Source of the DNA: an uncultured virus (IMG/VR IMGVR_UViG_3300029911_000018)
Lineage: Duplodnaviria > Heunggongvirae > Uroviricota > Caudoviricetes
Virus record (IMG/VR): IMGVR_UViG_3300029911_000018
Direction: 5' to 3' (one strand)
DNA: 64,000 nucleotides
This document shows positions 2,052-45,121 of the stretch, piece by piece. The number at the start of each line of letters is the position of its first letter. Positions within the stretch are counted from its first letter, which is position 1. The notes beneath the pieces are model-generated. The model worked only from the letters and a program-made list of their open reading frames with translations. It did no database searches and was not told where the DNA came from. The position numbers and the translations under genes were made by a program.

Positions 2052-2712
2052 TTACCAAATCCCCCGTACGTAGTTTGAGTACGTCCAAACCTGTCCAGTC
2101 ACGTGGTCTGTGACCTTCCCATCCTGCTCCCGGATAGTGCGGCGTTTATCCCCCCGCTGGCCGGTGCCTATCTGCTGGCGACGGTCGGCTACTTCCTTGC
2201 CTACCTTTGCCTCTCGCTCCAACGCTTCCAGCTTAGCACTCAGGATGATGAGAGCCAACTCTTTATTACGATACTGACTGCGTTCCGCCTCACAGCGCAC
2301 CATCAACCCGCTTGGAAGATGATGAACCCGAACTGCGGTTTCAACCTTATTGACGTTCTGCCCACCCTTACCACCACTTCGCATTGTGTCCCATTCAAGG
2401 TCTTTGGGGTCGATGCTGAATGTTGTGGTTACCCTCTCTTCAAAGACGGCTACAGTGATTGTTGATGTCTGGCGTCGGCCTCGTCTTTCGGTCGGCGGGA
2501 CTCGTTGCCACCGATGACCTCCAGACTCATTAGCAAAGACCTGCTCAACGTCTTTCCCCGTTACGCGGAATACTGCAATACCGGGTCGCGTCTCAAGAAT
2601 CTCAACGCTAAAGACCCCTCCGCTGACCCAGCCTTGCATAAATAGCCAACTGGTCAGCCACTAGAAGCTTGGCGTCATCGCCACCTTCTGCTGCTCGAAT
2701 TTCAACAATCAT
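2052..2712 (-). CDS. class I peptide chain release factor (RF1-like, lacking domain 1) with programmed +1 frameshift at 2608-2613
   Basis: Frame 0 MIVEIRAAEGGDDA..RRGL then CTT-TAG-C preceded by GGAGGGGT; +1 frame has E.G.HR.QRVPPTE.RGR.QTST and GGQNVNK. Confidence 0.9.
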
Positions 2713-4281: not shown

Positions 4282-4608
4282 ATGGATTTTGACGACATTG
4301 TTAACGAACTCAGGGTTCAGCAGCGCCGGATCAATGCGGCTCTTGTTGCTCTTGTGGGGACGGCTCAGGCCGACGCTCCGGTAACACAACCTGCACCAAA
4401 GATCACTGCAACCCCCAACCACCGTACAACCCGTCGTTCTTCAATGTCTTCAGGAGTGAAGCGGAAGATTTCGCTTGCCATGAAGCAGAACTGGGCAAGC
4501 CGGAAGCCTAAGCTCAAGTTGTCGCCGGAAATCAAGAGCAAGATTTCTTCCTCACAGAAGGCACGCTGGGCGTCGATCAAGGCAGCGGCTCAACAGATGG
4601 CAGCTTAG
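4282..4608 (+). CDS. small basic protein, paralog of 3851-4111
   Basis: GAGGAGG RBS; shared AAL.AL.G and Q.ARWA motifs. Confidence 0.75.
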   Translation: MDFDDIVNELRVQQRRINAALVALVGTAQADAPVTQPAPKITATPNHRTTRRSSMSSGVKRKISLAMKQNWASRKPKLKLSPEIKSKISSSQKARWASIKAAAQQMAA

Positions 4609-5211: not shown

Positions 5212-5709
5212 TTATGCCTGTAATTCCCTTTTACTGTATGTAGAGTAGTATTCGCGAACCTCCATGAGAATCCGACCAAGGTGGTTCAATCCCTCCGGTT
5301 CATGTGGCCCTTGTCTACAAGTCCCATCACACACCCCGAAGAATAGGTCATGCCAATTATTTCCTTCCACCAACTCCGCTGTGAAGGTTGAGATGAGTTT
5401 CCGACGAAGAATAGTTGGGTAGAATTTCTGCATCAGCAAATCCCGCATGATGCCTATGTTCACTTCCTTCCAATCTGGCCGGAGCTTGCCACTGTCTGAA
5501 ATGGCCTTACCCATGCGCTTAGCCCGACCCGCCGTTACCCCGGCGTAGAGAAACTTCTCCCGCTCTTTCAAGTTGAGTGTTTTAGCGGCCTGATACGCAT
5601 GTTCGACTGAAGGATAGGTCACTTCATCCAACACCACACTGCATGGGTAAAAGTTGGAGAGAAACCCCCACGGGTCTTTAAAACGGTCAATCAAAACGGG
5701 CAGGTCCAT
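5212..5709 (-). CDS. NADAR (YbiA-like) family protein
   Basis: FLSNFYP..YPSVEHAYQAAK..LVEGN.W.D.FFG..N.LG.ILMEVR. Confidence 0.92.
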   Translation of the reverse strand: MDLPVLIDRFKDPWGFLSNFYPCSVVLDEVTYPSVEHAYQAAKTLNLKEREKFLYAGVTAGRAKRMGKAISDSGKLRPDWKEVNIGIMRDLLMQKFYPTILRRKLISTFTAELVEGNNWHDLFFGVCDGTCRQGPHEPEGLNHLGRILMEVREYYSTYSKRELQA

Positions 5710-8362: not shown

Positions 8363-8698
8363 TTAATACCCTAAATCCTCACCTCTCCAAGCATACAAAT
8401 CATCAATAGCCAACTCATCCAGTCGGCCTATATTCTTGGCTCCGAAGTTTGGGGTTTGGGCATGACAGTTGGGACACAGAAAACGGATGTTATCCGGTTC
8501 ATTGTTCAGCCAGTCGCCATCAATGTGGTCGATTTGAAGAACAATCGGTCGGCCTATCCATTCAGGGTTTTTGTGTAAGGGACATCTAGGATCAGAGCAC
8601 CGATAGGGGACACCTGATTCCAACATAGCCCGTCGCAAGCGAGTCACATGCTCTCGATGTTTCTTGCGATTCCTAACTAGAATCTGGCTCCAGTGCAT
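8363..8698 (-). CDS. HNH endonuclease
   Basis: LQIDHIDGDWLNN...NIRFLCPNCHAQT. Confidence 0.85.
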   Translation of the reverse strand: MHWSQILVRNRKKHREHVTRLRRAMLESGVPYRCSDPRCPLHKNPEWIGRPIVLQIDHIDGDWLNNEPDNIRFLCPNCHAQTPNFGAKNIGRLDELAIDDLYAWRGEDLGY

Positions 8699-9684: not shown

Positions 9685-10323
9685 TTAAATTCGACCCCTT
9701 CTCCATCCAATCAAAACGTAAGAGGTCAAATCGTTTTGCTTAATCTTGATGGCTCTTTCACCGTCCGTTACCCAACGAGTACCGAACTGTGAATTCTTAT
9801 CCCCCGCTCTATTCACCAATGCCATCTTTGCTTTGGTGTCCGCCCTGTGCTTCCGACCAGTCCAAGTGCGTTTACTCGCCGCTGAAATCTTAGCTGACAC
9901 ATCCGGTTCAACACCATGTTCCCTAATCTGGTTGGCCCGAGCCTCACTCATCATCTTGTAATGCTGTGGGTCTCGATGACTCTGAGAACTGTGTGACACT
10001 CTGGCGGCATTGGCGTAGTCGGCCAACCCTTCTCGATTGATATAGTCAAACCCACCAGAGCCCCCTTTTCTCAAATTCATACAGAGAGGGTTACCCCGCC
10101 AACATTGAATCAACTCATCCTCTTTGCCAAATGCTGATTCAACATCGAGGTAGATGAACAGGACTTCCTTATGGAAGTTTTGTTCCCCATATTTTGCAAC
10201 GGCTCGTTTGATGTATGTACCGGAACCGAGGTACGCATCATCAGGGTCTTTCGTTTTGTGAACCCCGAAGTAGAACTTGCCGTTGAGCAGGTTGACGGTT
10301 TTGTAAACCGTGTAGTATGTCAT
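9685..10323 (-). CDS. GIY-YIG (Seg-like) homing endonuclease with NUMOD3
   Basis: VYKTVNLLNGKFYFGVH..YLGSG..KYGEQNF.KE..MNL..GG.GG. Confidence 0.9.
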   Translation of the reverse strand: MTYYTVYKTVNLLNGKFYFGVHKTKDPDDAYLGSGTYIKRAVAKYGEQNFHKEVLFIYLDVESAFGKEDELIQCWRGNPLCMNLRKGGSGGFDYINREGLADYANAARVSHSSQSHRDPQHYKMMSEARANQIREHGVEPDVSAKISAASKRTWTGRKHRADTKAKMALVNRAGDKNSQFGTRWVTDGERAIKIKQNDLTSYVLIGWRRGRI

Positions 10324-39314: not shown

Positions 39315-39390
39315 TGGTGTCGCCGATGGGAATCGAACCCACCATCATCTGATTGAAAGTCAGAGGTCCAGACCGATAGACGGCGGCGAC
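39315..39390 (-). tRNA. tRNA-Glu(TTC)
   Basis: TCTGA-CTTTCAA-TCAGA, CCA. Confidence 0.88.
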
Positions 39391-39444
39391 AAACTTAAAT
39401 CCGGGTGCCTTACGTTGACTCCTCGATACACGAAACTCATAACT

Positions 39445-39559
39445 TGGTGCCGGGGTAGGTATCGAAGCCTACAAACTCACAAAACCCGTTCGCATAAACG
39501 GGCATACTTTGTGATGCCTATGGATGCCTCCAGCGAATCTACCAATTCTTCCACCCGGC
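39445..39559 (-). ncRNA. tRNA-Leu-like RNA with no normal anticodon and a giant variable arm
   Basis: GCCGGG/CCCGGC-A-CCA, GAATTGGTAGA D loop, ~40-nt extra hairpin. Confidence 0.65.
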
Positions 39560-39565
39560 GTAGCT

Positions 39566-39641
39566 TGGTGCCCTCGGTAGGAATCGAACCTACGACTTCT
39601 TCCGTGTGAAGGAAGCACTCGTACCGCTGAGTTACGAGGGC
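39566..39641 (-). tRNA. tRNA-Val(CAC)
   Basis: CTTCC-TTCACAC-GGAAG. Confidence 0.92.
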
Positions 39642-39650
39642 GAAACTTAT

Positions 39651-39835
39651 TCTCAAGGAGGGGCATCGAACCCCCATCTCCGCCACGAACGGGCGGTGTC
39701 CTTACCGCTTGTCACTCCGACATCAGAGGCTATTACTAGCTTGGTGCTGACGGAACCCAGTTACATGCTGCTCAGTATATCGACAGCGGAGCAACATTTA
39801 CCCGTCATTGCTCTGCCATGTTAGACGACCTTGAA
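39651..39835 (-). tRNA. tRNA-Glu(TTC)-like gene interrupted by a ~110-nt insertion in the D loop
   Basis: TTCAAGG/CCTTGAG acceptor; GTCT..GGAC D stem; CCGCC-CGTTCGT-GGCGG. Confidence 0.65.
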
Positions 39836-39838
39836 ACT

Positions 39839-39913
39839 TGGTAGCCCTAGAGGGAGTCGAACCCTCATTCTCACCTTGAAAGGGTGCCTTCCTAGCCGTT
39901 AGAAGATAGGGCC
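39839..39913 (-). tRNA. tRNA-Glu(TTC)
   Basis: CACC-CTTTCAA-GGTG. Confidence 0.9.
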
Positions 39914-39933
39914 ATAAACTACCACCGATTACT

Positions 39934-40009
39934 TGGACGCGGAGACGAGGATTTAACTCGTGTCTCAACCTTTGCAGGGTCGCGCCTGATTCGCCTCGGC
40001 CACTCCGCA
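39934..40009 (-). tRNA. tRNA-Cys(GCA)
   Basis: CGACC-CTGCAAA-GGTTG, U73. Confidence 0.82.
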
Positions 40010-40346
40010 TTAAAAACTCTTGCTTCTGCTGGCACACAGGCCGCACAAAGGTGCTTTGCCTCGTGCTTGAAACTCTGTCCCGACCCCGTCTCGAAAACTA
40101 CAGTGAAGCCAATATCATCGAAGTGTGGGCACTCTGGTATACCTTCCAACTTGCAGAACTCCGATAGTTCATAAGCCATCACCATCGTGATCCTCAGGGT
40201 GGTAAGCATCCCACACTTTCAATACCGCAATCAAAACAAAAATACCAATCAAAACGAAAAAAGTTCCAACATCAACGTGCCCGGTGAAACCATACTCGGG
40301 AGTCCATGGTGCTTGCATAGTAGACCTCTACTATGCTTCTCATATT

Positions 40347-40421
40347 TGGTAGCCCTACGGGGTGTCGAACCCCGGTTGTCAGGTTGAGAACCTGCTTTCC
40401 TAACCGCTAGAAGATAGGGCC
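40347..40421 (-). tRNA. tRNA-Glu(CTC)
   Basis: CAGG-TTCTCAA-CCTG. Confidence 0.9.
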
Positions 40422-40432
40422 AAACTACAAAC

Positions 40433-40519
40433 TAGTGACGAGTGAAGGATTCGAACCTTCGTTCCCGCCCTTCGCATAAAGCTACTAAGCGAGTTTTTAG
40501 GCCACTAAAGTAACCCGTC
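40433..40519 (-). ncRNA. tRNA-like RNA with ~13-nt anticodon loop
   Basis: GACGGGT/ACTCGTC acceptor, GAAGG-TTCGAAT-CCTTC T arm. Confidence 0.6.
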
Positions 40520-40827
40520 AAACTGGAGCCGAGGGGGCGTGGTTATCCGCCACGGGATTTCCCTTACTCGGCATAAACTCGATTAACTGCGTCCGTCTTC
40601 ACTTTACTAGCCACCCGCCAAGGTCATGGTTGGGGAAGCAACTTTCGCTAGAGCTATCTTGGTGACCCCTACTCTTCCTTTCGGTACCATGGGTATGGGT
40701 CAGAGCCCATAAATCACCGCAGCCTTCACAGCGTGACAAAGCGACTTGCCACTTACGCACTAAGATACACCGTGTTCTGTAATCACACTATGCACTGTGA
40801 AACTTGGTGGATGTGACAGGAGTCGAG

Positions 40828-41040
40828 CTACACACCCAAAACCTCTTCTACCGCTTCATCAACGGTGGCGATGGCAATCACTTTGCCAGTTTCTGTCGTT
40901 CTCGGCCACCGTAGTTTACCTATGCATTCATCACCCTTATACACGCAGATACTGTACTTCCCGCTTCTCTCACCATCGTTCTCACATAGTGATAAAGTCG
41001 GGTCTTTCGAAATTGCAATTACTGCGTCAATAAAAGTCAT
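40828..41040 (-). CDS. hypothetical protein
   Basis: ATGA-coupled small ORF inside the tRNA array. Confidence 0.55.
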   Translation of the reverse strand: MTFIDAVIAISKDPTLSLCENDGERSGKYSICVYKGDECIGKLRWPRTTETGKVIAIATVDEAVEEVLGV

Positions 41041-41219
41041 TCACCCTCATCCACCAACTCAACCAAGAGTTGTATAGCTTCAATCTCGCGGTCTCCAACC
41101 TGTGAGACCTTACCTGTTACTGTGTCCGTGACCTTGAGCGGCCATTGCTTTGCCTTGATGTCGGCGATGCTGACAGTCGGACAGCTTACTAACGTGAACT
41201 CAGGTACACTATACTTCAT
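41037..41219 (-). CDS. hypothetical protein
   Basis: Small coupled ORF. Confidence 0.5.
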   Translation of the reverse strand: MKYSVPEFTLVSCPTVSIADIKAKQWPLKVTDTVTGKVSQVGDREIEAIQLLVELVDEGE

Positions 41220-41402
41220 TCAATCCACACTTCTCACAAAGGTCAGGGTCGTCTTCATCGCTGAGTGGTGCCTTACAACTCAAGCACCGCTTGTATGTGT
41301 CGGGCTCTTCCAACCCCGCGTACCACGGACTGCAAATACATTCACCCACACAAACATCGTTTTCGCAAACCGCGTTGAACTTCATCTCTTCCTAACTATT
41401 CA

Positions 41403-41506
41403 TGCAACAGGTGGGATTCGAACCCACGGCGTCCATAACAATCCGCCAGCGATATAGGCCCTTAACCATGAGACGTGGAATGCTCTACCAACTGAGCTAC
41501 CATTGC
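41403..41506 (-). ncRNA. tRNA with ~40-nt anticodon-loop region (intron-like insertion)
   Basis: Perfect D arm TAGCTCAGTTGGTAGAGC and T arm GTGGGTTCGAATCCCAC. Confidence 0.7.
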
Positions 41507-41606
41507 ACAAACTTGGTGGACGCAGGGGACTTGGCACCCCATCGCTCGGCGTTACCACTATGGACGCCCACATTTCAATTCCTTAAGCCGAGTTCCGGAC
41601 TTAACT

Positions 41607-41685
41607 TGGTGGAGCTATGGGGACTCGAACCCCACTGGATTCCTCATTGCGAATGAGGTGAACACCCCCGGCATTCCCTAGCCCC
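41607..41685 (-). tRNA. tRNA-Ala(CGC)
   Basis: G3:U70, CCTCA-TTCGCAA-TGAGG. Confidence 0.88.
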
Positions 41686-41769
41686 AAACTTTCGGGAGGA
41701 GAGGTTCTACGCATCTCACACGTTGAGAGCAAATCCCCTCTATCTCCCTGCATCTGTCAGACTGTCGTG

Positions 41770-41837
41770 TAGACACGGAGAGATTCGAACTCTCATTTCC
41801 CCTCGATAGGGGCGTCCTACCATTAGACGACGAGCCT
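41770..41837 (-). pseudogene. degenerate tRNA (Glu-like body, 6-nt loop)
   Basis: TCGTCTAATGGTAGGAC D arm; CCCC-TATCGA-GGGG; normal T arm. Confidence 0.55.
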
Positions 41838-42445
41838 CAGCCCGACAAACCCTTAACCCAAACACTTACCGAACTCTTTGCAACCCCGAGTAAAGCTGCG
41901 ATTTGGGCTTTACAAATTCCTTGTTCAAACAACTCCTGCGCTTTCATTCGTTCAACCGCTTTTATATTTCTCAACCTTGCGGCGGCGGAGCCTATCGCTG
42001 ATAATCCTCTTTGCTTTGCCATCTCCGATGACCCACGAGCGCCACTACGATTGAAATTGTTGCGAATCATATCCCGATAGTTAGCGTCTGTCTTCCAACG
42101 CTCCGCGCTGTTAGTCCTATTGGCCGCTCGAACCCTCCACCCTTGGTTGGGTTGCTGATTTATCCAGTCGAAGCCACCACTCCCACCTTGTCTCAGGTTG
42201 TAGCACAAAGGGTCGGCTCGATACGTTTCAATCAGTTCGTATTCTTTAGCAAATGCCTCCCCTGAGTTGTCGAAGATGAAGCACACGTTCTTTATGAACG
42301 ACTGCTCACCGTGCTTACGAATCGCCGCCTTCAGAACCTTACCTGACCCAAGGTACCCGTCGTACGGGTTCTTGGTTTTGTGGACGCCGAAGTAATACTT
42401 TCCGTTCACCAAATTCTGTGTTCGATACACTGTGTAAAATATCAT
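41837..42445 (-). CDS. GIY-YIG (Seg-like) homing endonuclease, C-terminal HTH
   Basis: Nuclease domain paralogous to 9685-10323; AQIAALLGVAKSSVSVW. Confidence 0.9.
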   Translation of the reverse strand: MIFYTVYRTQNLVNGKYYFGVHKTKNPYDGYLGSGKVLKAAIRKHGEQSFIKNVCFIFDNSGEAFAKEYELIETYRADPLCYNLRQGGSGGFDWINQQPNQGWRVRAANRTNSAERWKTDANYRDMIRNNFNRSGARGSSEMAKQRGLSAIGSAAARLRNIKAVERMKAQELFEQGICKAQIAALLGVAKSSVSVWVKGLSG

Positions 42446-42511
42446 GAACCTATCAGCCTCTCAGGTTTCTGAGGACTTAACCTCTACTAAAGAGGTTGAT
42501 AGTCACGAATG

Positions 42512-42584
42512 TGCGCCTTGTAGGAATCGAACCTACGGTCCCTTCCATGTCAAGGAAGTGCTCTAGCCGCTGAGCCAAAGGCGC
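42512..42584 (-). tRNA. tRNA-Val(GAC), no encoded CCA
   Basis: CTTCC-TTGACAT-GGAAG. Confidence 0.9.
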
Positions 42585-42658
42585 AAAACTAGTTAGCGGC
42601 TGCAAGCGCGTCCGTCCTGCATTTAATCCCTAAACCTGAGGGAACCACACTTTAAAGT

Positions 42659-42735
42659 TGGCGGGGACGACGGGGCTCGAACCCGCGACCTCTACCGTGA
42701 CAGGGTAGCGTTCTAACCAACTGAACTACATCCCC
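42659..42735 (-). tRNA. tRNA-Asp(GTC)
   Basis: CTACC-CTGTCAC-GGTAG, G73. Confidence 0.93.
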
Positions 42736-42745
42736 AACTTCAAAC

Positions 42746-42820
42746 TGGCGGAGACGGCGAGGGTTGAACTCGTATATTCTTCCGTGACAGGGAAGCCCAT
42801 TGCCATTATGGTACGTCTCC
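42746..42820 (-). tRNA. tRNA-Asp(GTC)
   Basis: CTTCC-CTGTCAC-GGAAG, G73. Confidence 0.85.
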
Positions 42821-42914
42821 TCAAGGGTGTGTTCCGCAGCTTTTAGTTCTCACTGCAAGCCCTAAGCCCGTGCGCCTTTGTGCGGTACGACGTTAGGTGC
42901 TACCCTTTGAAACT

Positions 42915-42990
42915 TGGCGGGGCTGATGGGACTCTAACCCACGATAGACGGCTCGACAAGCCGCTGCATTAGACGCTATGCTACAACCCC
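42915..42990 (-). tRNA. tRNA-Asp(GTC)
   Basis: GCGGC-TTGTCGA-GCCGT, G73. Confidence 0.82.
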
Positions 42991-42991
42991 T

Positions 42992-43172
42992 TGGTGGACG
43001 TGTCGTGCCGCTTACGCTGTCATTTAACGACCGGGTACCTCATCTCTCTAATTACGAGTGTGCTGTTCAACTGCACACACCCATACGATTTGAGCTACCA
43101 CAACAGTGTCGTTCAGTAGAGCCATTTGGCTGGATTGTTCATACCCGAAGGGAACTCTCCGGCATCACATCC
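42992..43172 (-). ncRNA. ~180-nt structured RNA ending in ACCA
   Basis: GGATGTG/CACGTCC and TGCCG/CGGCA closing stems; CGGGTAT/GTACCCG inner stem. Confidence 0.5.
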
Positions 43173-43184
43173 TCTACTAAAATT

Positions 43185-43260
43185 TGGTGGACCTAGAGGG
43201 GATTGAACCCTCGACTTCTTCCATGCCATGGAAGCACTCTCCCACTGAGTTACAGGCCCC
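43185..43260 (-). tRNA. tRNA-Ala(GGC)
   Basis: CTTCC-ATGGCAT-GGAAG, G3:U70. Confidence 0.93.
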
Positions 43261-43267
43261 TAAAACA

Positions 43268-43477
43268 TCAAAACCTTTTGCCACTGTTCAGCATATTTAT
43301 CCTTTCTAATACCGAGGGCTCCGTCAACAGCAGACGTAAATTCTCATTCGGCTGTGTTGGCCTTTCCAACATTGCAACAAACTCTTGCCACTGCTCAGGA
43401 CTGAGGCGAATGTTGTTCTCTTCACCAGCCAGTCGGGTATGAACGCTTCTCATGTCGGCATCGAAGTTAATCTTCAT
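43268..43477 (-). CDS. orphan DUF1778/TacA-like antitoxin C-terminal domain
   Basis: IRLSPEQWQEFVAMLERPTQPNENLRLLL; AGGAG RBS. Confidence 0.7.
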   Translation of the reverse strand: MKINFDADMRSVHTRLAGEENNIRLSPEQWQEFVAMLERPTQPNENLRLLLTEPSVLERINMLNSGKRF

Positions 43478-43493
43478 CGCTCTCCTTTCAAAT

Positions 43494-43569
43494 TGGAGGC
43501 GATGATGGGATTCGAACCCATGCATAACGGTTTTGCAGACCGCCGCGTTAACCACTTCGCCACATCGCC
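43494..43569 (-). tRNA. tRNA-Cys(GCA)
   Basis: GCGGT-CTGCAAA-ACCGT, U73. Confidence 0.93.
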
Positions 43570-43587
43570 TATAACACCAACAAAACT

Positions 43588-43661
43588 TGGAGCGGATAGT
43601 CAGATTTGAACTGACGGTGACAGGGTGGAAGCCTGTTGCCTTACCGCTTGGCTATACCCGC
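43588..43661 (-). tRNA. tRNA-Gly(TCC)
   Basis: ACAGG-CTTCCAC-CCTGT, U73. Confidence 0.9.
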
Positions 43662-43667
43662 TTTGAA

Positions 43668-43802
43668 TCAGAGATATTTTCGTACCTCCAGTGGTCCGAA
43701 TCGGTAGCTCTCATATGAGCTACATCCCCACATAAGAGAACTGTTCAATCGGAAGGTCTTTCCAAAAGACCAACTCCGCCACCAGAAATAGTACCTCCAC
43801 AT
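43668..43802 (-). CDS. 44-aa aromatic-rich microprotein
   Basis: GAGGAG RBS; MWRYYFWWRSWSFGK.. Confidence 0.45.
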   Translation of the reverse strand: MWRYYFWWRSWSFGKTFRLNSSLMWGCSSYESYRFGPLEVRKYL

Positions 43803-43887
43803 ATCTCCTCAATTTCTCGACGCCTCTCCGCCGTGCCACACCACTTTAGTCCGCAGGACTCGGTAGGTGTCACCCCGCTTAAAACTC

Positions 43888-44283
43888 TGCACTAGACTTA
43901 TAGCCGGAGTTCTGTCCAGAGGGTTACCCCTCCTGTACAATCATTCGTCTCGGCCAGCCGTTACCGTCTGGCTCTAGCCCCCAACCCGCCGATTCATAAC
44001 GGTACGAGCAGTACCTGTCGGCCTATTTGAGGTTGCACCGCGTAGAGATTGCCCGTTTCACCCGAATTTAATCGGCTCGTCTCTGTTGCTCTAATCGTCA
44101 CACTCAACATCGGACGGGTTGTTCCCATAGGGTTGGTGGAAATCAACCAGACGTATAGCTGCGTCCCCTTACGCTACGTCCCCGAACAAGTGTGCTAGGG
44201 TGTTACCCTATACGCTGCTCTGTGGTGCTCCGAACTTCCTCGAAGTGGTATTGCGCCACGTCGCGATTGTCCAGTCTAGTGCA
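43888..44283 (-). ncRNA. rnpB: RNase P RNA
   Basis: P1 TGCACTAGACT/AGTCTAGTGCA; P4 halves GAGGAAGTTCGGAGC and ACAGAACTCCGGCTATA; GCAACAGA, GGGTGAAACGG, GGTAAC loop. Confidence 0.92.
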
Positions 44284-44310
44284 TACTTAATGAAACCGAG
44301 GCCGAAGCTG

Positions 44311-44655
44311 TTACTGTACTGCCGACGTGCGCTGTACTGCCACGCTACGAAGGTAAGCACGCATCTCGTCCGAGAACTCATTGAACATCTCACCCTTATC
44401 CAACCAGTGCAAAATGGTCTCCCAGTTCTCTTCCTCAGGCGTCCACTGACCCTCCAAGCCGTAGCAAGAGCAGTGACCGCCACTTACTGAGAACAGCTTC
44501 CCGTCCTTCTCGAACAGAACGAATGCCGAACCCGAATAGTCCTCGTAGCTATACACCGCTGCGTAGACCAACGCATCCTTCAATTCATCCTGACCAATAT
44601 TGAACTGGTCGCATACATCCTCAACGCTGCCGAACCTATCTACAAATACTTCCAT
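44311..44655 (-). CDS. conserved phage hypothetical protein
   Basis: Y..EDYSG.A.VLF..DGKL..V.G.HCSCYGLEGQW. Confidence 0.7.
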   Translation of the reverse strand: MEVFVDRFGSVEDVCDQFNIGQDELKDALVYAAVYSYEDYSGSAFVLFEKDGKLFSVSGGHCSCYGLEGQWTPEEENWETILHWLDKGEMFNEFSDEMRAYLRSVAVQRTSAVQ

Positions 44656-44724
44656 CGTTTTCTCCTTGTGGTACAAACCATCGAGAGAAACGGTGAGGTA
44701 ATTGTTCGACCTCGGTTTCAAATT

Positions 44725-44803
44725 TGGTGGACCGTCAGAGATTTGAACTCTGCTGATATTCTGTGTGCAAGACAGATAAACACTCCTAGCATTTCCACGG
44801 CCC
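44725..44803 (-). tRNA. tRNA-Ala(TGC)
   Basis: TCTGT-CTTGCAC-ACAGA, G3:U70. Confidence 0.85.
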
Positions 44804-44940
44804 AATATTGTCAAACATCATGTAATCACCGGCTGGCCGGGATTAAAAATCTTGGTGGCTTTGGCTCACGCCGGGGCACCACCCGCGCCCCTCGAAGTAA
44901 ACTTACCCAGTCTTGTGGACTGGAGTCTTGCTCCAGAGCT

Positions 44941-45015
44941 TGGAGCGGCTGGTGGGATTCGAACCCACGACCTCTTCCTTGGCAAGGAAGCGTTCTACCA
45001 CTGAACTACAGCCGC
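44941..45015 (-). tRNA. tRNA-Gly(GCC)
   Basis: CTTCC-TTGCCAA-GGAAG. Confidence 0.93.
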
Positions 45016-45045
45016 ATATACTTCAATACTGCAAAAACCAAAACT

Positions 45046-45121
45046 TGGTGCTCCAAGTGGGACTCGAACCCACGATAGTCTGCTTGTAGGGCAGATGATT
45101 TAGCCGCTAATCTACCGGAGC
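45046..45121 (-). tRNA. tRNA-Val(TAC)
   Basis: TCTGC-CCTACAA-GCAGA. Confidence 0.9.

Follow-up and report, generated by a model that had tools for sequence, protein, structure and literature searches.

Does a short open reading frame (ORF) lodged between two tRNA genes of a phage encode a functional protein, and if so, what could be the role of a product that resembles the toxin-binding end of a bacterial antitoxin? We have addressed these questions for an ORF within 64,000 nucleotides of viral DNA, the whole stretch analyzed, which we call the window. A sequence-only reading had placed an ORF at 43268..43477, and these coordinates are exact. Translation from 43477 to 43268 on the minus strand gives 69 amino acids and a stop codon, and the product (P0001) contains the motif that had been quoted. 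The principal features are as follows.

43477..43268, minus strand: 69-amino-acid, RHH-less TacA/DUF1778-like ORF (P0001), from its translation with stop, Pfam match and dN/dS
43480..43489, minus strand: Shine-Dalgarno-like GAAAGGAGAG just before the ATG; L003 and L004 are purine-rich at the equivalent place
43494..43569, minus strand: tRNA-Cys(GCA), upstream neighbor (ARAGORN, Rfam), likewise placed in L003
43185..43259, minus strand: tRNA-Ala(GGC), downstream neighbor, likewise placed in L003
43588..43661, minus strand: tRNA-Gly(TCC), second gene upstream of the ORF, acceptor end GCG...CGC-U73-CCA
43427..43477, minus strand: residues 1-17, subfamily-specific N-terminus replacing the RHH domain, with a short strand-like stretch and a predicted helix 5-16
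43301..43420, minus strand: toxin-binding hook, residues 20-59, with strand 23-25, helix 27-38, proline linker, helix 45-52 and TEPS tail

The gene and its phage

The ORF lies inside the tRNA array, as had been claimed, and with its ribosome-binding site it fills the 234-nt spacer between tRNA-Cys(GCA) and tRNA-Ala(GGC). It is separated by 16 nt from the CCA end of tRNA-Cys(GCA), with a purine-rich ribosome-binding site before its ATG, and its stop codon is 8 nt from tRNA-Ala(GGC). Short ORFs led by a Shine-Dalgarno sequence are frequent in the array, where a simple rule finds them in 5 of 19 spacers, so that the position of this one says little. A longer, 95-amino-acid version starting within tRNA-Cys was rejected because its read-through frame is not kept in a related phage, L003.

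The gene is encoded by a large phage with a genome of about 310 kb. A protein identical to P0001 is present on 15 contigs, the largest of 310 kb, and an IMG/VR record is 100% identical to the locus over 10 kb. The window carries 31 tRNA genes (ARAGORN) together with genes for PhoH, RecA, ribonucleotide reductase and a transglycosylase. RNA runs containing the region are labelled as peat or permafrost metagenome; in one of four runs analyzed an RNA contig extends over the initial 73 nt of the ORF, and gives neither strand, level nor shared transcript. Scans for promoters and terminators around the gene returned chance levels, and searches with the ribonucleotide reductase and RNase P gave no clue to the host.

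Comparison with L003 provides the evidence for selection. The orthologue there has 58 amino acids, the order Gly(TCC)-Cys(GCA)-ORF-Ala(GGC) is kept, and frame and ribosome-binding site are intact. Over the 58 aligned codons dS = 1.12, dN = 0.19 and dN/dS = 0.17, with 24 differences at third positions, 11 at first and 9 at second; a Fisher test for purifying selection on rounded counts gave p = 1.6e-6. The gene is genuine and evolves under purifying selection. These values, the preservation of frame, ribosome-binding site and gene order in L003, and an N-terminus conserved in seven proteins largely refute the idea that the ORF is a functionless, decaying remnant of a captured toxin-antitoxin (TA) operon, which we regard as extremely improbable. 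It is true that short TacA pieces are common in databases (16 of 20 TacA1-positive matches are without the RHH part), and that some resemble mis-called starts (P0078, P0109). Because mis-called starts also yield short pieces, we have counted only those with context or a shared motif.

In a profile search, the first eight of the best 120 of 386 matches constitute a subfamily. Seven of the eight have the sequence MKI(N/H)(F/L)DADM-x-x-VH-x-RLA, and the other is an N-terminally cut fragment. A subfamily profile built with five members scores the three outside it at 101-122 bits, compared with at most 58 bits for full-length TacA. Genomic context was seen for two members, those of the P0001 phage and L003; another, P0003, sits on a 346-kb contig. 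For P0002, read-through translation suggests that tRNA-Cys also precedes the ORF. A metagenome scan found two further copies of the P0001 phage and one ordinary TacAT operon (L007); L008-L010 from the same scan were dropped as chance matches. The gene is patchily distributed. Pfam family PF08681 passed its cut-off in none of 72 further viral records having a release-factor gene in common with the phage (16 of them at least 90% complete), while the identical search does detect the gene in records G001-G004. One weak match, L118, was rejected as it falls inside a 185-amino-acid ORF.

The toxin-binding hook and the N-terminal segment

The C-terminus of the protein had been likened to that of DUF1778 antitoxins, and the HMM search agrees. 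P0001 matches PF08681, TacA1 (DUF1778), with 29.6 bits against a curated cut-off of 21 bits (E = 6.8e-7; residues 19-51 against positions 43-75 of the 80 in the model). TacA1 is the sole Pfam family matched at E ≤ 10, and covers the C-terminal half only. The description of the protein as a fragment is apt for that half; residues 1-17, however, are a conserved segment of their own, and for this reason P0001 is more than a fragment. Other searches returned little. A single-sequence search of a 90% library found P0001 itself alone, PHROGs gave no match, annotated phages gave four weak matches (one in a Mycobacterium prophage), none covering 80%, and plasmids gave weak matches that were mostly DUF1778-annotated genes among the 40 listed of 148. 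The nearest full-length relatives are about 60% identical over 41 residues; the invariance of the TEPS tail among full-length matches is inflated by the word-based search.

Residues 20-59 are equivalent to βB-αC-αD of KacA. In KacAT the C-terminal strand, helix, proline linker and helix of the antitoxin wrap around a toxin monomer, with toxin contacts made by W61, V64, I68, N75 and L78 (PMC6698736). We mapped these residues via a full-length relative, and KacA W61, V64, I68, P71, N75 and L78 correspond to P0001 W30, F33, L37, P40, N44 and L47. The hook residues are thus kept. One residue speaks against neutralization. Loss of R77 in KacA abolished it (PMC6698736), and the corresponding residue in P0001 is N46. 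The subfamily has N here in 4 of 7 proteins and K in 3 of 7; R is found in 37 of 64 full-length relatives. Positions 44-46 as a whole are N-E-N/K in the subfamily, against mostly K-P-R in full-length relatives.

The predicted structure of P0001 has helices at 5-16, 27-38, 45-52 and 56-65 (pLDDT 79.7, pTM 0.41), and a fold search returned 7AK7 and 7AK8 as its best rows, none at E ≤ 0.001. A modelled complex with a toxin had been proposed as a check, and we folded residues 1-60 of P0001 with the L014 toxin, a stand-in chosen because the hook of its own antitoxin (P0041 cluster) is 59% identical over 41 residues. The complex scored 0.65, and the best of three controls 0.00. Of 157 solved complexes 116 attain the mark applied, as do 2 of 215 mismatched pairs. 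At least 62% of the contacts are common to the runs, and the pLDDT of the partner is at least 64. The modelled interface comprises residues 20-58, in the known binding mode, and residues 1-19 make no confident contact with the toxin. Since like complexes have already been solved, the score shows likeness, not binding. In the PDB, toxin complexes with antitoxin chains of 39-46 residues cover the hook segment (7AK8 by its title; 6GTQ and 9ILR with short chains). We conclude from the model that the hook keeps the shape of a binder, the score of 0.65 probably arising through likeness to the solved complexes. The phylum of the stand-in toxin, with matches in 11 of 201 sampled genomes, carries no information on the host of the phage.

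Could the hook have been put to another use? It might bind or modulate a different host enzyme of GNAT fold, or an unrelated protein, and no longer act on TA toxins. The most distinctive conserved part of the protein is its new N-terminus, which has no confident toxin contact, positions 44-46 differ consistently from those of full-length relatives, and our literature search found no anti-phage role of TacAT. Nevertheless the hydrophobic toxin-contact positions are retained and the binding mode of the model is the known one, and we consider such repurposing unlikely.

The RHH domain, which the sequence-only reading had reported missing, is indeed absent. Profiles match the C-terminal half only, upstream DNA is occupied by tRNA-Cys, and reading through in frame gives different sequences in the P0001 phage and in L003. 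Profile comparison with TacA (hhalign) aligns residues 12-61 only, leaving a putative ribbon unaligned; the end of the segment 1-17 shows a weak alignment to that of TacA helix B. Of all offsets, the one that places residues 2-8 on the RHH ribbon fits best; D/N then stands at a position that is R in 100 of 102 full-length proteins. The idea of the N-terminus as a relic ribbon was not supported, as p = 0.003 at the chosen offset becomes a non-significant 0.20 across all offsets. An Atlas search with residues 1-22 returned nothing usable. At a guess, the N-terminus may stand in for the RHH domain in dimerizing or in covering the dimer face of the toxin.

A putative ribbon-like strand lacking the DNA-binding arginine could serve a more aggressive role, in which P0001 would displace host TacA or poison the RHH dimer. 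The toxin would then be derepressed or triggered, and host translation shut down while the phage tRNAs carry on. The best-fitting offset of residues 2-8, with its D/N in place of R, is what such a role would lead one to expect, as is the absence of the RHH-dependent contacts that block toxin dimers. Set against this, the ribbon likeness has p = 0.20 over all offsets and is left unaligned by hhalign, and two other hook-only types, L004 and L164, are without this N-terminus. Moreover, all five phage tRNA-Gly genes examined end GCG...CGC-U-CCA. These are presumably the bases read by the toxins, and with such ordinary acceptor ends the phage would poison itself. Sabotage of this kind we regard as decidedly unlikely.

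Toxin genes and a putative function

No GNAT toxin gene is adjacent, in agreement with the earlier reading. Directly downstream of the ORF is tRNA-Ala, and none of the 92 window ORFs scanned, a set without short or overlapping ORFs, has a GNAT Pfam match. A toxin profile run against six frames of the window, L001, L003 and L004 gave nothing above 4.8 bits, compared with 221 bits for the control L007, and no match in records G001-G004 and G279 (G280 being the control). This search covered about 107 kb of the phage.

The toxin gene might lie elsewhere in the genome, P0001 being the antitoxin of a split TA pair that serves for addiction or for exclusion of competing phages. The search reached about one third of the roughly 310-kb genome, and TacAT operons do occur in viral records. 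Yet no toxin was found in those 107 kb nor in three other records. Furthermore, an RHH-bearing TacA lies upstream in 40 of 42 viral GNAT-toxin loci, the remaining two being cut by contig ends, so that each of the 40 toxins with upstream DNA present has its own adjacent full-length antitoxin. A split pair is therefore very unlikely.

Three hook-only types were found, that of P0001, L004 and L164, all in toxin-free viral records. L004, in a phage with a different tRNA order, is a 54-amino-acid gene flanked by tRNA-His and tRNA-Phe; its ribosome-binding site is good, and its product is without the 17-residue N-terminus of the P0001 subfamily. L164, a 65-amino-acid ORF beginning at the binding strand, is the weaker case because it has neither tRNAs nearby nor a clear ribosome-binding site. 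A tree of the hooks (40 columns; 58 rows, of which 45 are randomly chosen full-length proteins) resolves few branches and does not show independent capture, although the P0001 subfamily is split from the L004 and L164 types (94/89). The suggestion that the gene is co-induced with tRNA-Gly and tRNA-Ala found no support: its direct neighbors are Cys and Ala, and the other two types have different surroundings. The link to tRNA-Gly is weak.

The hook residues are kept and no toxin lies nearby, and we think it probable, if by no means certain, that P0001 is an orphan antitoxin, neutralizing host toxins of TacT type, acetyltransferases of Gly-tRNA, that are freed during infection. The phage would have taken the C-terminal hook of a TacA/DUF1778 antitoxin and lost the RHH domain and the toxin gene, the hook being retained in the tRNA cluster. 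Infection would stop synthesis of the host antitoxin, whereupon TacA would decay and leave the toxin free. The freed toxin would acetylate Gly-tRNA, including the ordinary tRNA-Gly of the phage, and translation would stall. P0001 may prevent this by wrapping the toxin monomer, strand 23-25 pairing with the toxin sheet and two helices acting as a clamp. As it is without the RHH domain it should be unable to repress the host operon, and would act only as a toxin inhibitor.

Several observations are consistent with this proposal. Most GNAT toxins tested acetylate Gly-tRNA, which is the sole substrate of 8 of 14; recognition by TacT involves both the acceptor stem and the amino acid (PMC9177977). 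Cells that lose a plasmid carrying tacAT under native expression are killed, with a survival of 1.4e-4, the lowest among six systems (PMC10899753), indicating that stopping the supply of antitoxin frees the toxin; host shut-off in infection would be expected to free it likewise. We assume that the acceptor end of the phage tRNA-Gly genes is the usual set of glycine identity elements, on which charging depends. Escape by way of its tRNAs would then be closed to the phage, and a protein inhibitor would be needed. We also count in favor a NADAR gene in the same window, from the family of known orphan anti-DarT antitoxins.

Other evidence stands against it, in addition to N46. Each KacAT toxin touches three antitoxin chains, partly via RHH helix A, which P0001 does not have, and full neutralization draws on all three (PMC6698736). 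Most TacA antitoxins, though not all, counter only their own toxin (PMC9431474, PMC10305079). The earlier suggestion of an anti-defense mimic has fared unevenly. Its mimicry has gained from the purifying selection, the kept contacts, the other hook-only genes and the modelled complex, but it presumes that TacAT is a defense. PADLOC matched none of the six toxins and antitoxins tried to any model, and Salmonella TacAT gave E. coli no defense against T7 (normalized AUC 0.142 against 0.158 for the control, MOI 1e-5; PMC13645617), in a test of narrow scope, one phage and one TacAT system. A broader reading is possible but somewhat doubtful. TacAT modules may form an unrecognized abortive barrier in soil and peat bacteria, from which several phage lineages would have captured the hook alone as a minimal type II mimic, perhaps of broader range than host TacA, and placed in tRNA arrays as a change of tRNA-Gly would offer no escape.

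How does the putative inhibitor relate to known systems? With TacA/AtaR/KacA (PF08681, GNAT-RHH type II TA) it shares the strand-helix-proline linker-helix hook and the toxin-contact residues. It differs in having no RHH domain and no adjoining toxin gene, in its new 17-residue N-terminus and in its location in a phage tRNA array. Thus P0001 would work like the toxin-binding half of TacA, yet is not a member of TacAT, as two features that define TacA, the RHH domain and the adjacent toxin, are missing. The antitoxin peptides in solved complexes (7AK8; short chains in 6GTQ/6GTR and 9ILR/9ILS) are the same segment as the hook, but to judge by titles and lengths these are laboratory constructs, whereas P0001 is encoded by a naturally occurring gene that selection maintains.

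Phage orphan antitoxins are already known as a kind, from AdfN, Dmd and DarG-like mimics. AdfN (NADAR, anti-DarTG1) is, like P0001, an antitoxin homologue carried by a phage without the toxin, and is also without an N-terminal part of the host antitoxin (PMC11825919); the DarG-like mimics are likewise phage-carried homologues with no toxin. However, these are enzymes that reverse a DNA modification and have a proven defense target, while P0001 is a putative stoichiometric type II binder whose putative target, a tRNA acetyltransferase, has an unproven role in defense. T4 Dmd, which binds RnlA and LsoA, can be likened to P0001 as a small phage protein directed at type II toxins that act on translation; it is described as a heterologous antitoxin (PMC10305079), and P0001 is a direct homologue of the binding domain of a host antitoxin. 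Phage tRNAs as a counter to tRNA-targeting defenses are discussed in PMC12409363. Our literature search, with most subscription papers outside it, found no phage-encoded TacA-like protein and no anti-phage GNAT-RHH system.

For the natural role of the large family of GNAT toxins, a phage gene that is under selection and encodes little more than a toxin-binding hook offers indirect evidence of importance during infection, and the question becomes testable with a protein of 58-69 residues. It would extend the theft of antitoxins by phages from enzymatic antitoxins to short, unstructured type II binders, which are hard to find by computation (PMC11825919). P0001 suggests a rule for finding more: an antitoxin C-terminus with no DNA-binding domain and no toxin.

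Other features of the window and of two other records

Further features were noted in the window, in L003 and in L004.

2055-2711, minus strand: short phage class-I release factor, with PCRF and RF-1 Pfam matches and VPPT and GGQ motifs
4282-4608, plus (opposite) strand: 108-amino-acid basic protein
5212-5709, minus strand: NADAR protein (78 bits), close to the first tRNA cluster; may be an orphan antitoxin against DarT, as AdfN is
8363-8698: HNH-like ORF
9685-10323 and 41837-42445, minus strand: two similar GIY-YIG-like ORFs beside tRNA genes
41403-41506 and 41770-41837, minus strand: two tRNA-like genes called by Rfam, not by ARAGORN; the first unusually long, at 104 nt
39315-45121, minus strand: the array, in which tRNA-Asp(GTC) and tRNA-Glu each occur three times and one tRNA-Ala call has anticodon AGC
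43885-44282, minus strand: bacterial class A RNase P RNA gene in the phage tRNA array (Rfam, 162.5 bits)
L003 6540-6612, plus strand: tRNA called by ARAGORN (anticodon TCA, label SeC) but, with a length of 73 nt, possibly a UGA suppressor
L004 6085-7494, plus strand: 469-amino-acid ORF beside the tRNA array, near the L004 hook-only gene

A +1 frameshift cassette like that of prfB divides the release factor near 2607-2625; it has an internal GGAGG followed by 3 nt, CTT, TAG and C. By a simple pattern, CTT and a stop codon lie near the shift site in 44 of 76 loci, the window included (31 TGA, 12 TAG and 1 TAA); one of the 44 has no upstream frame and several are near-duplicates. No TAG cassette is reported among 8,164 bacterial prfB genes (PMC12421855), and our literature search found no paper on a phage form of the cassette.

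The 108-amino-acid basic protein has no match in Pfam, PHROG or plasmids. We take it to resemble the small nucleoid-type proteins of Acidobacteria, which is a possible clue to the host. The 469-amino-acid ORF of L004 looks like Ro60/TROVE.

Annotated phages contain no DNA similar to the RNase P RNA gene. Contigs matching it occur in all four RNA runs analyzed, and the equivalent place in L003 holds an HNH-like ORF, with no RNase P gene evident on inspection. Of the GIY-YIG-like ORFs, that at 41837-42445 has a weak GIY-YIG and a clear HTH match, and the other is assigned by likeness to it. The first tRNA cluster contains five Pro-like and six Leu genes.
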